Assembly: GCA_023261645.1 (NCBI GenBank)
Contig: JAHFOO010000001.1
Coordinates: 181,047-245,046 of the forward strand
DNA: 64,000 nt
Reading direction: 5' to 3'
Origin: Candidatus Moraniibacteriota bacterium
GTDB taxonomy: Bacteria > Patescibacteriota > Minisyncoccia > Moranbacterales > UBA1568
Part shown: one piece after another, positions 3,316 to 21,440 of the stretch
Position numbering within the stretch: position 1 is the first letter of the stretch
Layout: each line of letters opens with the position of its first letter
Position numbers and translations under genes: made by a program
The notes under the pieces: model-generated
What the model was told of the DNA's origin: nothing
Database searches by the model: none
What the model saw: only the letters and a program-made list of their open reading frames with translations

Positions 3316-3363
3316 GATGTTTTTTTCTGTCGTTCATTATCCTCTTGTTCTCTCCTGTCTTGA

Positions 3364-3512
3364 CCCCGACACCAATTGAGCTTTAATTCTTGGAAGTCAG
3401 CGGTTTTTTCGTGAATATTCCTATTTTTTAGGCATGTAGAAATGCTTCATTTCTATCGTGCTGAAGCTCAATTGGTGTTGGGGTTGACAGGATTAAACCT
3501 ATTAGGTAATAT
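3364..3512 (+). promoter_or_regulatory. 20-bp inverted repeat (CCCCGACACCAATTGAGCTT ... AAGCTCAATTGGTGTTGGGG) abutting a consensus sigma-70 promoter (TTGACA, 17 bp, TAATAT) for the str operon
   Basis: Arms at 3364-3383 and 3464-3483; -35 at 3484-3489 and -10 at 3507-3512. The same architecture recurs upstream of tuf at 7442-7557. Confidence 0.65.
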
Positions 3513-3609
3513 AGATTGTACGGAAAAGCAAAGGCTTTTTCTATTTTATTGCAAGATGAATTTCGTCTTTTCCCTAGATTCTAAATTCAACATTCTAAAT
3601 TCAATTTTT

Positions 3610-4029
3610 GTGGCAACGATCAACCAGCTCATCAAACACCCTCGTACAACGGCTTCCAAGAAGTCGAAGTCTCCTGCGATGACCTATTCTATCAATAGCG
3701 TCAAAAACCGTAATACATTTCATGACAGTCCGTTCAAACGAGGTGTCTGTATCAAGGTGTCGACGACTACTCCGAAGAAGCCGAACTCAGCTTTGCGGAA
3801 AATCGCTCGTGTACGTTTGACGAACGGTATGGAAGTGACCGCGTATATCCCAGGGGAAGGTCATAACCTCCAGGAACACTCCATCGTTATGATTCGCGGT
3901 GGGCGAGTGAAGGATCTTCCAGGTGTGCGTTATCATATCGTCCGAGGTATTTTCGATGCAGCGGGTGTAGCAGCTCGAAAGCAGAGCCGATCAAAATATG
4001 GTGTGAAGAGAGACAAGAAGAAAGACTAA
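3610..4029 (+). CDS. rpsL: 30S ribosomal protein S12
   Basis: (V/M)[11 protein letters not shown] ... [59 protein letters not shown]. Start assigned to GTG 3610 to match the conserved S12 N-terminus; ATG 3556 is an alternative. The upstream part of ORF 3442 overlaps the promoter and is unlikely to be coding. Confidence 0.9.
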
Positions 4030-4136
4030 TGAAAAAGAATTTTGAATCTCAAATTTTGAATCAAGAGAGAAGAACTTTTAGAAAATTGAAACATTGGAAA
4101 TTGTTTAGAAATTGATAATTGAAAATTTATAGAATT

Positions 4137-4604: not shown

Positions 4605-4776
4605 AGCAAAATGCAATTTCTAATCTTCAATTTCTAATTTCTAATGAATTTTCAATGTCAAAAGGCATAACGGAAATTCATTTTGATAGTGGGACATTAA
4701 TGCGTTAGAAATTCCTGCTCGCTCGGCAGACGGGGTTTAGAAATTAGTAATTAGAACTTAGAAATTAACTAAAAAT

Positions 4777-6930: not shown

Positions 6931-7112
6931 ACCAATCCATGTTTGCTGGCAGACAGGGAAGCGAGTGGGCATAGTTGTCTTTTTTGTTGATCTCTGTTAT
7001 TTTGAAAAACTGCAACATTCCATTGTAGGTATGGTTGTTTACCAATTTTTTTGAATGGAGGTTTTCTTTGATGATGCTAGAGCCTTTTATTTTTATTGAA
7101 AAGGAGAAAGTT

Positions 7113-7337
7113 ATGACGACAATCCAGAAAGTCGGAGGCGATGGTCCATTCTCGATATCATCCTTGAAACACCAGGCGTACGGATTGAAGAGGGATCTTG
7201 TGAAGAGAAACCTGGAACCTCATACAAGAAGAAGAGCTGAAGCTACTTTATTAGGGCTTCTGATGGAGCTTAAAAAACATGGTATTTCAATTTCAAAAAG
7301 AAAGTCTCGTGTTCTGACAGCATCGAAAACAGCGTAA
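7113..7337 (+). CDS. small basic hypothetical protein (74 aa) inserted between fusA and tuf
   Basis: Strong SD AAGGAG 6 nt upstream of ATG 7113; followed by a strong terminator; no recognisable domain. Confidence 0.45.
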   Translation: MTTIQKVGGDGPFSISSLKHQAYGLKRDLVKRNLEPHTRRRAEATLLGLLMELKKHGISISKRKSRVLTASKTA

Positions 7338-7366: not shown

Positions 7367-7410
7367 GAACCGCGACAACCATATAATATGGCTTGTACGC
7401 GGTTTTTTTC
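7367..7410 (+). terminator. rho-independent terminator
   Basis: Long hairpin AACCGCGACAACCATAT/ATATGGCTTGTACGCGGTT followed by a T7 run. Confidence 0.7.
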
Positions 7411-7441
7411 TGGCTAAATTAAATATGTAGAGACGCTTGAT

Positions 7442-7557
7442 CCCCACACCAATTGAGCTTTTGTTTAGGAGGAATATGAGTTTTTTATATTATTTTTTTG
7501 TCTTGTTTAAGCTCAATTGGTGTGGGGGTTGACAGATATCAGGCAAGTTGTTATTAT
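7442..7557 (+). promoter_or_regulatory. second copy of the 20-bp inverted repeat (CCCCACACCAATTGAGCTT ... AAGCTCAATTGGTGTGGGGG) abutting a consensus promoter (TTGACA, 17 bp, TATTAT) for tuf
   Basis: Arms 7442-7460 and 7509-7528; -35 at 7529-7534, -10 at 7552-7557; 19/20 identity to the rpsL copy. Confidence 0.65.
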
Positions 7558-7709
7558 GCTCAGTGATGCTTTTACCCAAGCTTTTTTCATTTGTATTTGG
7601 AAAAAATTTGGTGAAAAAGAAACATTTGGTAATATATATAATTCGTAATTATTAGGAGGACGCAAAGCTTTACGCAAGTGAAGATGATGCTTACTCATAC
7701 GATAAGGCT

Positions 7710-8900
7710 ATGGCAGAGCAATTTGATCGCAGCAAACCACACGTAAACGTCGGTACTATCGGTCACGTCGACCATGGGAAGACCACTTTGACAGCAGCTA
7801 TCCTGCATGTCCAGCATTTTTTGGGTATGGCAGTAGAAAAAGGCATCGATGAAATTGATAAAGCTCCAGAAGAGCGCGATCGTGGTATCACTATCGCAAC
7901 AGCTCATTGTGAGTATTCGACAGAAGCTCGTCACTACGCGCACGTCGATTGTCCTGGTCACGCTGACTATATCAAGAATATGATTACCGGTGCCGCTCAG
8001 ATGGACGGTGCTATCCTCGTCGTTTCTGCGACTGATGGTCCTATGCCACAGACCCGTGAACACATTCTCTTGGCTCGCCAAGTAGGTGTTCCTGCTATCG
8101 TTGTATTCCTCAACAAGGTAGATATGGTGGATGATCCGGAATTGATCGAACTCGTCGAAGCTGAAATCCGTGAACTTCTTTCCAAATATGAATTCGATGG
8201 TGACAAAGCCGTTATCATCCGTGGCAGTGCTTTGAAAGCTTTGAACTCGAAGTCTGCTGAAGACCCAGATGCCAAATGTATCCTGGACCTTATGAAGGCA
8301 ATTGATGAAAATATCCCGCAACCAGTACGTGATTTGGACAAACCATTCCTTCTTCCGATCGAAGACATCTTCTCGATTGAAGGTCGTGGTACGGTTGTCA
8401 CCGGACGTATCGAACGCGGAGTGATCAATATCAACGAAGAAGTGGAGATTATCGGTCTTACCGATACCAAGAAGACCGTTGTGACTGGCATTGAAATGTT
8501 CAACAAATCTCTCAATCGTGGTGAATGTGGAGACAACGCCGGTATCCTGATCCGTGGTATCAAGAAGGAAGATGTCCAGCGTGGTCAAGTGTTGGCCAAA
8601 CCAGGTTCCATCACTCCTCATACTGAATTCGATGGTGAAGTGTACGTTCTCTCCAAAGAAGAAGGTGGACGACATACTCCATTTTTCAAAGGATACAAAC
8701 CACAATTTTATATTCGCACCACTGATGTGACCGGCGAAGTGGAATTGCCGGAAGGTACTGAAATGGTTATGCCTGGCGACACGGTGAAACTCAAAATCAA
8801 ACTTTTGGCACCTGTGGCTATGGAAGAGGGTATGCGTTTCGCTATTCGTGAAGGTGGACGTACTGTCGGTGCCGGTGTCGCAACAAAAATCTTGAAATAG
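7710..8900 (+). CDS. tuf: elongation factor Tu
   Basis: [25 protein letters not shown] motifs; 396 aa. Confidence 0.97.
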
Positions 8901-20645: not shown

Positions 20646-21440
20646 ATGAAGCAGAGACACGAAATGACAGAAAAGGATTGGATCAAGACCCCGGATGAAA
20701 TAAGGCGTCTCCGCCTCTCGTGTCAGAATATGGCGCGTATTTTGGAGACGGTTATAGAGACAGTCAAACCAGGAGTGACTACGTTTGATGTTGATGCTCT
20801 TGCTGAACGTCTCATTCGTGAAATCGGGGGTACCCCCATTTTCAAAGGATATAATCCCGGAGGAGGGCGTCCATTTCCTGCTACGCTTTGTGCTTCTCTT
20901 AACAACGAAGTTGTCCATGGTATTCCAAGCAAAGAACGGATCATCAAAGAAGGTGATTTGTTCAAAATAGATATCGGAATGCGGTTTGAAGGAATGGTTT
21001 CTGATATGGCCCGTACTTTGATGGTTGGTACCGTTTCTTCATTGGCGGAAAAATTGACGGCGGTTACAAAAGAGTCTTTGGAAAGGGGTATAGCAGAACT
21101 TCGTCCCGGTGCGCATATCTCGGCCTATGCCAAAGCGGTACAAGGGTTCGTCGAAGAAAGTGGCTTCTCTGTCGTGCGTGATCTTGTCGGTCATGGTGTC
21201 GGTCGAGAACTCCACGAAGATCCGCAGGTGCCGAATTATGTTTCTCGCCGTATGGATGACTTCATCTTGAAAAAAGGAATGACACTGGCTCTCGAACCGA
21301 TGATCAATGCAGGAACATTCGCCGTCTCTATCGATTCTGATGATTGGACATTCATTACAGCCGATGGCAATCTCTCTGCTCACTTCGAAGACACGGTAGT
21401 CATCACGGATAATGGTGCGGAGATACTGACGAGAATATAA
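20646..21440 (+). CDS. map: type I methionine aminopeptidase
   Basis: Conserved metal ligands in pita-bread fold context (VVHGIP, DIGMRFEGMVSDMART, GHGVGRELHE). Confidence 0.93.
   Translation: MKQRHEMTEKDWIKTPDEIRRLRLSCQNMARILETVIETVKPGVTTFDVDALAERLIREIGGTPIFKGYNPGGGRPFPATLCASLNNEVVHGIPSKERIIKEGDLFKIDIGMRFEGMVSDMARTLMVGTVSSLAEKLTAVTKESLERGIAELRPGAHISAYAKAVQGFVEESGFSVVRDLVGHGVGRELHEDPQVPNYVSRRMDDFILKKGMTLALEPMINAGTFAVSIDSDDWTFITADGNLSAHFEDTVVITDNGAEILTRI

Follow-up and report, generated by a model that had tools for sequence, protein, structure and literature searches.

The 64-kb stretch of a Candidatus Moraniibacteriota genome that we analysed here (hereafter, the window) carries, in this order, genes for an S2P protease, rpsL, rpsG, fusA, a small open reading frame (ORF), tuf, and the S10 operon, and two long palindromes immediately precede the -35 hexamers of the promoters of the str operon, upstream of rpsL, and of the tuf/S10 operon (Table 1). 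Both palindromes are, very probably, copies, devoid of genes, of a small mobile hairpin element, similar to transposable elements of the miniature inverted-repeat kind (MITEs), that inserted into the TTGA of the -35 hexamer. Copy 1 spans 120 bp and consists of two 20-nt arms, complementary at 19 of 20 positions with a lone G:T mismatch, around an 80-nt spacer; copy 2 spans 88 bp, with a 48-nt spacer (left arm 7441/7442-7460). Across both copies, the arms are complementary at 19-20 of 20 positions and so constitute terminal inverted repeats; the loops of the two copies are mutually unrelated. Among the inverted repeats of the window, these arm pairs rank second and third in length. The arm (CCCNACACCAATTGAGYTT) recurs there: as a 20-mer with at most 3 mismatches, it occurs exactly four times, against none in 100 shuffles, and its 12-nt core four times with at most 1 mismatch, against 0.35 expected. 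A hairpin with a 20-bp stem is predicted on both strands, far beyond the shuffled sequences (z of -6.6 to -9.3 as DNA and -7.9 to -9.1 as RNA), the plus-strand RNAs of the two copies folding at -67 and -45 kcal/mol (z -9.1 and -7.9). The layout described in the original prediction, which was made from the sequence alone, holds up in all these respects: the arms, the spacer, and the TTGACA-17-TAATAT promoter at copy 1, with TTGACA directly abutting the right arm; the near-identical arrangement upstream of tuf (7441/7442-7557), in the same -35 register but with a different loop; and the expected hairpin or cruciform.

The same arms recur in other genomes. An exact-pattern scan of one genome per species yielded 13 loci, with paired arms in two Moranbacteria genomes (L004, L006) and another Patescibacteria genome (L012), and a metagenome scan yielded 74 loci (L-numbers denote loci or contigs retrieved from genomes and metagenomes). 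Together with the loci found earlier, these included 34 arm pairs, of which 27, from the window, genomes, and metagenomes, were analysed after removal of repeated loci. About 25 independent pairs of the same arms lie in other genomes; the 20-nt family consensus of the arm is CCCCCACACCAATTGAGCTT, and conservation is far stronger in the arms than in the loops. A scan of viral contigs returned one solitary match inside a coding sequence that looks like chance, and the single-arm matches in L002, L009, L014, and the AAACTCAATTGGTGTAGGGC group, all in coding sequences, were set aside because they look like chance or gene homology.

The most telling feature of these loci lies just outside the arms. 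Both window copies are bracketed by a TTGA direct repeat, which was overlooked in the original prediction, and in both, the right-hand TTGA makes up bases 1-4 of the -35 hexamer. An exact flanking direct repeat of 4-5 bp is present in 17 of the 27 arm pairs, compared to 0.9% in a control in which flanks were paired between different loci. Eight independent sites are flanked by TTGA/TCAA (the two window copies, L006, L048, L060, L067, L071, and L108), with a C preceding TTGA in seven of the eight, and at all eight, the right end reads GGGGG-TTGA(CA/CC/TG), followed by 15-17 nt and TAnnnT. The genes 3' of these insertions are rpsL, tuf, rpsP, dnaB, greA (twice), a zinc-ribbon ORF, and one more. 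Other duplicated targets are CAAA, TCCG, CGAG, TGAA, and CTTTG, with no TTGACA present. The constant register between the arm and the -35 hexamer is explained by the duplication of TTGA on insertion into this tetranucleotide: when the target is TTGACA, the hexamer is rebuilt after the right arm, and the host promoter therefore survives. Thus read, the sites indicate that the element strongly prefers to integrate into the -35 hexamer, at C-TTGA-C(A), and that its own target duplication would regenerate the hexamer that it interrupts.

Table 1. The two palindromic elements of the window and the features next to them
Feature	Position	Strand	Remark
TTGA duplication, left copy, element copy 1	3360..3363	.	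Direct repeat of 3484-3487, just outside the arms
Left terminal inverted repeat, copy 1	3364..3383	+	CCCCGACACCAATTGAGCTT; 1 mismatch to family consensus CCCCCACACCAATTGAGCTT
Loop, copy 1	3384..3463	.	80 nt, gene-less; internal 8-bp hairpin TAGAAATG/CATTTCTA; GIY-YIG remnant not detected
Right terminal inverted repeat, copy 1	3464..3483	-	AAGCTCAATTGGTGTTGGGG
Native str-operon promoter	3484..3512	+	TTGACA 3484-3489, 17-nt spacer, TAATAT 3507-3512; 3484-3487 is the right TTGA copy
rpsL-leader hairpin and T-run	3522..3541	+	Kept in relatives; outside the element
rpsL (ribosomal protein S12, GTG start)	3610..4029	+	First gene 3' of copy 1; orthologues in relatives match Pfam Ribosom_S12_S23
TTGA duplication, left copy, element copy 2	7437..7440	.	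Direct repeat of 7529-7532
Left terminal inverted repeat, copy 2	7441..7460	+	TCCCCACACCAATTGAGCTT
Loop, copy 2	7461..7508	.	48 nt, AT-rich, gene-less
Right terminal inverted repeat, copy 2	7509..7528	-	AAGCTCAATTGGTGTGGGGG; identical to family consensus CCCCCACACCAATTGAGCTT
Native tuf/S10-operon promoter	7529..7557	+	TTGACA 7529-7534, 17-nt spacer, TATTAT 7552-7557, TG before -10; 7529-7532 is the right TTGA copy
tuf (EF-Tu)	7710..8900	+	First gene 3' of copy 2

Homologues of elongation factor G (EF-G), which are named Moranbacteria, place the window in Candidatus Moranbacteria, within the Patescibacteria, and comparison with the related genomes collected through them (the identities given here are those of EF-G) identifies the corresponding empty sites. 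The tuf promoter and leader are uninterrupted in L116 (97%), L119 (94%), L120 (92%), and L121 (92%), for example aaggcTTGACAgaattg, reading nnTTGACA-N17-TATCAT/TAGTAT/TATTAT followed by the same leader (agcgagtgatgcttttNcccaagctttttt), with no arm within 5 mismatches at this promoter in any of the four; in L116, the terminator flank upstream of the site is orthologous as well. Copy 2 was found only in the 99-100% identical strains L001 and L128. Because the tuf site is empty at 92-97% identity and filled only at 99-100%, copy 2 is, as far as these genomes tell, a clean and recent insertion into a pre-existing tuf promoter. At the rpsL promoter, intact arms are present in none of six relatives (L116, L119, L120, L121, L126, and L129), all of which conserve the promoter (TTGACA, 17 nt, TAGTAT or TACTAT) and the leader. 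The window copies display four of the features by which MITEs are recognized, namely, terminal inverted repeats, small size and lack of genes, target duplication, and presence/absence polymorphism.

Among the retrieved loci, we identified what appear to be the full-length forms of the element. The loop lengths are bimodal: loops of 261-268 nt contain a nuclease gene, whereas those of 29-122 nt, the window copies included, are gene-less. In L012, a gene for an 86-residue GIY-YIG protein occupies exactly the 265 nt that separate the arms, with the ATG 6 nt past the left arm, the stop codon overlapping the right arm, and the right arm entering the first bases of a tRNA-Glu gene. An intact GIY-YIG gene lies between arms that are identical or 1 nt off in L012, L022/L111, L045, L049, L058, L074, L087, L103, and L113; all eight of the 261-268-nt loops that were examined encode an intact protein of 86-90 residues that fills the loop exactly. 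These gene-carrying elements, 301-308 bp in length (~305 bp), reside in other genomes of the candidate phyla radiation (CPR). The L012 protein matches the Pfam GIY-YIG family with E=2.4e-15 over residues 1-71, as a single domain, and its nearest solved structures are the UPF0213 proteins 1ZG2 (E=8e-9) and 1YWL; an NCBIfam search returned no family above the cut-off. We found 78 CPR homologues of this protein, most of them 83-94 residues long, and in all four lineages for which the surrounding DNA was inspected (L012 and three more), inverted repeats bracket the gene exactly. The bracketing repeat differs among the four lineages, changing on both sides together: ...CCAATTGAGCTT (...AATTGAGCTT) in L012 of the Patescibacteria group, ...CCAATTGAGTTT (...AATTGAGTTT) in L022, an uncultured metagenome contig, CCCCCACACCTAATCAAATT in L015 from Moranbacteria, and CCCCTCACCCAGGAAGC in L032 from Yanofskybacteria. 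No other gene was consistently linked to the element among the loci examined. Judging from these sequences, the relation of gene-less to gene-carrying copies is that of MITEs to insertion sequences. When short loops were compared to the long elements with blastn-short, L114 gave a significant match (E=3e-6), and L048 and L054 weak ones, so that descent by internal deletion is detectable for L114 and, weakly, for L048 and L054. We also considered the window loops as decayed nuclease genes, but blastn-short against the long elements came back empty for both.

The element targets not only promoters but also the ends of tRNA genes. Some copies abut such ends or overlap them by 1-3 nt, in which case the terminal G-run of the arm stands in for the 5' G's of the tRNA (GG-CCCTG, GG-CCCTA, GGG-CGAG, and GGG-CCAG), and a single exact arm is located at the 5' end of a tRNA-Leu gene of Saccharibacteria (L003). 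We asked whether L113 and L065 represent the same site, once with the gene and once lacking it, but the flank that they have in common is the conserved tRNA-Glu gene: the target is the same, orthology being unproven. In a Bdellovibrionales metagenome-assembled genome (contig CAYOIM010000004.1, L013:1-455), a gene for bacterial type A RNase P RNA carries the same arms, a single one at the P3 position, abutting GGAGGAAAGUCCGG, and a full pair (293-312 and 404-423, TCCGCACACCAATTGAGCTT) just before the P4 3' strand; the insertion of these arms is probably why this RNA falls below the Rfam gathering cut-off.

Additional observations pertain to the same settings. In all seven gene-carrying elements for which this was recorded (L012, L045, L049, L074, L087, L103, and L113), the GIY-YIG gene is co-directional with the adjacent tRNA gene and usually lies just upstream of it, which suggests that the nuclease might be expressed by co-transcription with the tRNA. 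In L025:703-1071 and L027:253-621, a second small selfish-looking gene at this spot, coding for a 23S rRNA intervening-sequence protein (PF05635), adjoins a GIY-YIG element and tRNA-Trp. In Planctomycetes and similar metagenome contigs (L005, L008, L010, L011, L046, L055, L057, L069, L079, L102, L106, and L110), compact hairpins follow the pattern GGCCCCGCACCAATT-AGNCGT-GAGC-(CTAA)-GCTC-AATTGGTGTGGGG, with the arm as their right half and always a 6-nt bulge, AGGCGT, AGTCGT, or AGACGT, in the left half; they have the appearance of a related family of oriented repeats.

The closest known system is that of the Ssn nucleases, Ssn/NTS-SRM (dRS3/NTS in Neisseria). Ssn nucleases are GIY-YIG proteins of ~94 residues that cleave single-stranded DNA site-specifically next to a cognate hairpin, and their genes are flanked by cognate hairpin repeats, an arrangement that the authors called identical to that of insertion sequences (Chenal et al. 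2025, PMC11893778). As in the Ssn case, the full-length relatives of the window copies, although not the gene-less window copies themselves, comprise a gene for a ~90-residue, single-domain GIY-YIG protein between inverted, hairpin-forming repeats, and copies of the repeat that lack the gene are likewise dispersed close to important genes. Unlike the Ssn gene, which lies between two self-contained hairpins of 20-50 nt, the gene described here is enclosed by a single long hairpin, an arm to either side; there are 1-2 copies per genome rather than the hundreds of the Ssn repeats; and the flanking duplications, empty sites, and targeting of -35 hexamers and tRNA ends go unmentioned in the Ssn study (PMC11893778), which also discusses the REP/REPIN-RAYT and IS200/IS605 systems. 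The published SRM pattern, HGTCWYN(0-2)YYVSBRHN(0-5)WNVSBRGN(0-2)RNCYNB, has no match on the arms, nor on the flanks of L012, L022, L015, L032, L008, or L010. Its lone match in the window, at 20808-20837 (CGTCTCATTCGTGAAATCGGGGGTACCCCC), is unrelated and overlaps a 17-nt palindrome, TGAAATCGGGGGTACCC/GGGTACCCCCATTTTCA (20808-20844); with ~0.45 matches expected by chance, it may mean nothing.

Several other families of small palindromic repeats are functional analogues only. The Correia elements, MITEs of Neisseria, fall in the size range of 90-160 bp and have terminal inverted repeats of ~20-26 bp, short target duplications, and long RNA hairpins, often beside promoters, and in size, terminal repeats, short flanking duplications, RNA hairpins, and promoter proximity, the elements described here resemble them. 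Correia elements, however, duplicate TA, have a conserved interior, and supply promoter hexamers from their own ends, and we know of no cognate enzyme for them, whereas the present family has 20-nt arms, of a sequence different from the 26-bp Correia repeat, duplicates 4-5 bp (mostly TTGA), has unrelated interiors, adjoins a promoter of the host, and includes gene-carrying copies. In the REP/REPIN-RAYT and IS200/IS605 systems, a small nuclease gene is flanked by inverted hairpin repeats that the enzyme is thought to disperse, with recognition in single-stranded form. The RAYT enzymes are Y1 HUH transposases, the REPs carry GTAG and number in the hundreds, and IS200/IS605 elements produce no flanking duplication; in the case at hand, by contrast, the putative enzyme belongs to the GIY-YIG family, and flanking duplications are present. 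The palindromic elements of Rickettsia, finally, are tolerated in structural RNA genes and near essential genes of reduced genomes, as are the arms inside the RNase P RNA gene of L013, and often lie in-frame in protein-coding genes; there is no sequence relation between the two, and in-frame coding insertions were not seen here.

A coherent, if partly conjectural, scenario emerges from these comparisons. A full-length element of ~305 bp, with 20-bp terminal inverted repeats, encodes a single GIY-YIG nuclease of 86-90 residues and would integrate with a 4-5-bp target duplication, mostly at C-TTGA-C(A) of sigma-70 -35 hexamers. The nuclease probably recognizes the hairpin in single-stranded DNA, as the Ssn nucleases do, and the window copies would then depend on nuclease supplied in trans. 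The str and tuf promoters appear to predate the insertions, with the element neither having delivered them nor serving as a shared operator, and any effects on transcription would be side effects, namely, of the displacement of upstream promoter DNA by 92 bp at tuf and 124 bp at rpsL and of a stable 20-bp stem in read-through RNA. That the GIY-YIG nuclease is itself the mover of the element seems to us an even call, given that the arms co-vary with the lineage of the protein, that the gene fits exactly between the arms, and that the Ssn systems offer a precedent.

Not all the observations sit comfortably with this scenario. Ten of the 27 arm pairs lack an exact flanking duplication, although some of these show near-matches, and the copy number is low, with one exact pair per matching GTDB species genome. 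In blastn-short comparisons, nothing significantly similar to the nuclease gene turned up in the window loops, so that descent by internal deletion is not established for these two copies, and neither profile nor tblastn searches detected a GIY-YIG gene in the window loops or elsewhere in the window. Furthermore, copy 1 is, by comparison with the relatives, not a clean recent insertion. The region upstream of rpsL in L126 contains a significant 33-nt match to copy 1 (score 39, against a null maximum of 31) that corresponds to element positions 16-49 (window 3379-3411), comprising 5 nt at the inner end of the left arm and the adjoining 28 nt of the loop, and it is flanked on both sides by degenerate arm-like sequence; in four relatives, GGGG directly precedes the TTGACA of rpsL. 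Either an ancestral insertion at the rpsL site has decayed elsewhere, or this site is a recurrent target, and an old insertion that is intact in this genome alone could hint at selection acting on the hairpin. Finally, we know of no GIY-YIG enzyme that transposes with flanking duplications, and the 86-residue protein may be the product of a passenger homing-endonuclease gene.

These difficulties have to be set against those of the alternative explanations, two of which were raised by the original prediction. Under the first, a transcription factor or nucleoid protein co-regulates the str and tuf/S10 operons by binding the arms as operators; each arm contains CAATTG, and the arms could be bridged by DNA looping. 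In its favour, both copies lie upstream of translation operons in the same -35 register, the 32-bp difference in arm spacing, about three helical turns, keeps the relative phasing, conservation is far greater in the arms than in the loops, and copy 1 looks better preserved than the L126 relic. However, the arms are missing from the same promoters in relatives with 92-97% EF-G identity, being absent at tuf in four and nowhere intact at rpsL in six. It was precisely absence from the orthologous promoters of close relatives that the original prediction had named as evidence against itself. In other phyla, the same arms bracket nuclease genes and lie at tRNA ends, within a gene for RNase P RNA, and next to unrelated promoters; the flanking duplications are a signature of insertion; and the palindromic part of the arm amounts to the 6-bp CAATTG only. 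A shared regulator site is, therefore, very unlikely. The other suggestion, a small MITE-like cassette that carries a promoter, was half right. Inverted repeats, 4-bp duplications, empty sites, and gene-carrying relatives bear out its MITE-like half, but we give very little credence to the notion that the element brought an outward -35 hexamer or a whole promoter and so created or boosted the rpsL and tuf promoters. It is true that a good promoter follows every TTGA-flanked copy, and certain bacterial MITEs, the Neisseria Correia elements among them, do create promoters at their ends. Yet TTGACA lies outside the inverted repeat, its TTGA being duplicated on the opposite side; the relatives possess TTGACA-N17-TAnnAT and the leader without any element, so that the empty sites contradict such a delivery; and the copies at tRNA ends and at the CAAA, TCCG, CGAG, TGAA, and CTTTG targets have no TTGACA.

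A role at the level of RNA, with the 20-bp stem in read-through transcripts serving as an RNase III site, a terminator, or an insulator between the upstream genes and the translation operons, is quite unlikely as well, even though the plus-strand RNAs fold with the strongly negative z-scores given above, the single mismatches of both copies are G:U-compatible on the plus strand, and RNA hairpins must be tolerable where copies lie within the RNase P RNA gene or tRNA leaders. No U-run follows the stem, a canonical terminator is already present upstream of copy 2 (~7370-7410), and mismatches elsewhere, considered as a test of RNA or single-strand function, have no consistent strand bias (C:A in L060 and L071, T:T in L087, and G:G in L058). 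A known RNA family or tRNA-like element was likewise ruled out, with Rfam and ARAGORN empty at the arms: the Rfam 15 scan of the window recovered tRNA-Pro alone, and no Rfam family covers the arms at the 13 related loci. An RNA hairpin could, moreover, be a side effect of insertion, and it leaves the flanking duplications, the empty sites, and the nuclease gene unexplained. A last possibility is that some other enzyme, of the host or of an element, moves the hairpin, with the GIY-YIG gene a passenger of the free-standing homing endonuclease kind that invaded some loops. GIY-YIG proteins count as classic homing endonucleases, we know of no GIY-YIG transposase, and most copies are gene-less, their loops resembling neither the nuclease gene nor one another. 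We nevertheless find a passenger unlikely, because arm sequence and nuclease co-vary across four lineages, the right arm and the stop codon overlap, each of the eight long copies has its loop filled exactly by the gene, and no other gene shows a consistent link to the element.

If the GIY-YIG protein does move the element, this would be the first GIY-YIG-based bacterial element with flanking duplications and, to our knowledge, one among the smallest gene-carrying mobile elements known. We would go further, if only tentatively, and suggest as a distinct possibility a new class of minimal autonomous DNA transposons of ~305 bp, in which an Ssn-like GIY-YIG gene is nested in a hairpin with a 20-bp stem, and which generate 4-5-bp duplications, target -35 hexamers and tRNA starts in a manner that rebuilds the host signal, and leave gene-less copies behind. 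Should such a class exist, it would provide direct genomic evidence that the Ssn-type GIY-YIG hairpin systems are, or descend from, mobile elements, and the Ssn nucleases would gain an evolutionary origin among such elements. Full-text literature searches found no published descriptions of GIY-YIG elements with flanking duplications, of -35-targeting MITEs, of CPR GIY-YIG elements, or of a gene nested in this manner. GIY-YIG genes are, however, listed among the predicted transfers from Patescibacteria to other bacteria (PMC12455944), which fits the spread of the arms across phyla. Insertion at sites where the element's own duplication repairs the interrupted promoter or tRNA would be a parasite strategy suited to a tiny, gene-dense genome, and the strict CTTGACA preference could serve as a natural promoter-targeting insertion system. 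For this particular genome, a false lead, that of the palindromes as a hidden translation regulator site, is removed.

The surroundings of the two insertions show some further features. The -35 region of rpsL looks like a hot spot of insertion and rearrangement, given that L116 has, at 1330-1370, a perfect 36-bp palindrome, CCCGCCCGCAACGCTTCG/CGAAGCGTTGCGGGCGGG, different from the arms and ending one base before the TTGACA of rpsL, that L120 (1480-1560) has TTGACC, 54 nt, and TTGACA at this promoter, and that the gene upstream of rpsL varies among the relatives; this variation indicates that the rpsL region rearranges often. The fusA-tuf interval varies as well: in the window, it contains an unannotated ORF of 74-100 residues (7035-7337), in L116 a GFA-domain gene, in L125 NUDIX and GFA genes, and in L126 two small ORFs, and it is empty in L119 and L120. 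We considered a conserved small peptide encoded in the loops, since copy 2 has AGGAGG-N3-ATG and an 18-codon ORF that enters the right arm, but in copy 1 the arm is read in another frame, so that the two copies have no peptide in common.

Downstream of the element, the rpsL and tuf leaders (3522-3541 and ~7563-7590) both open with a short hairpin and, directly after it, a T-run (GGAAAAGCAAAGGCTTTTTC and GCTTTTACCCAAGCTTTTTT, respectively); all the relatives examined keep these structures, which resemble attenuators or regulatory elements of the leader. The rpsL-leader motif ATTCTAAAT shows no enrichment across the window. Direct and inverted repeats resembling TTCTAAAT/ATTTCTAA, a motif with no window-wide enrichment, are located just 5' of the start codons of rpsL, rpsG, and fusA (3567-3609, 4039-4061, and 4615-4766), and the rpsG-fusA interval includes a 30-nt inverted repeat (4615-4644 and 4737-4766); similar units also precede dnaB in L048 and rpsL in L120.

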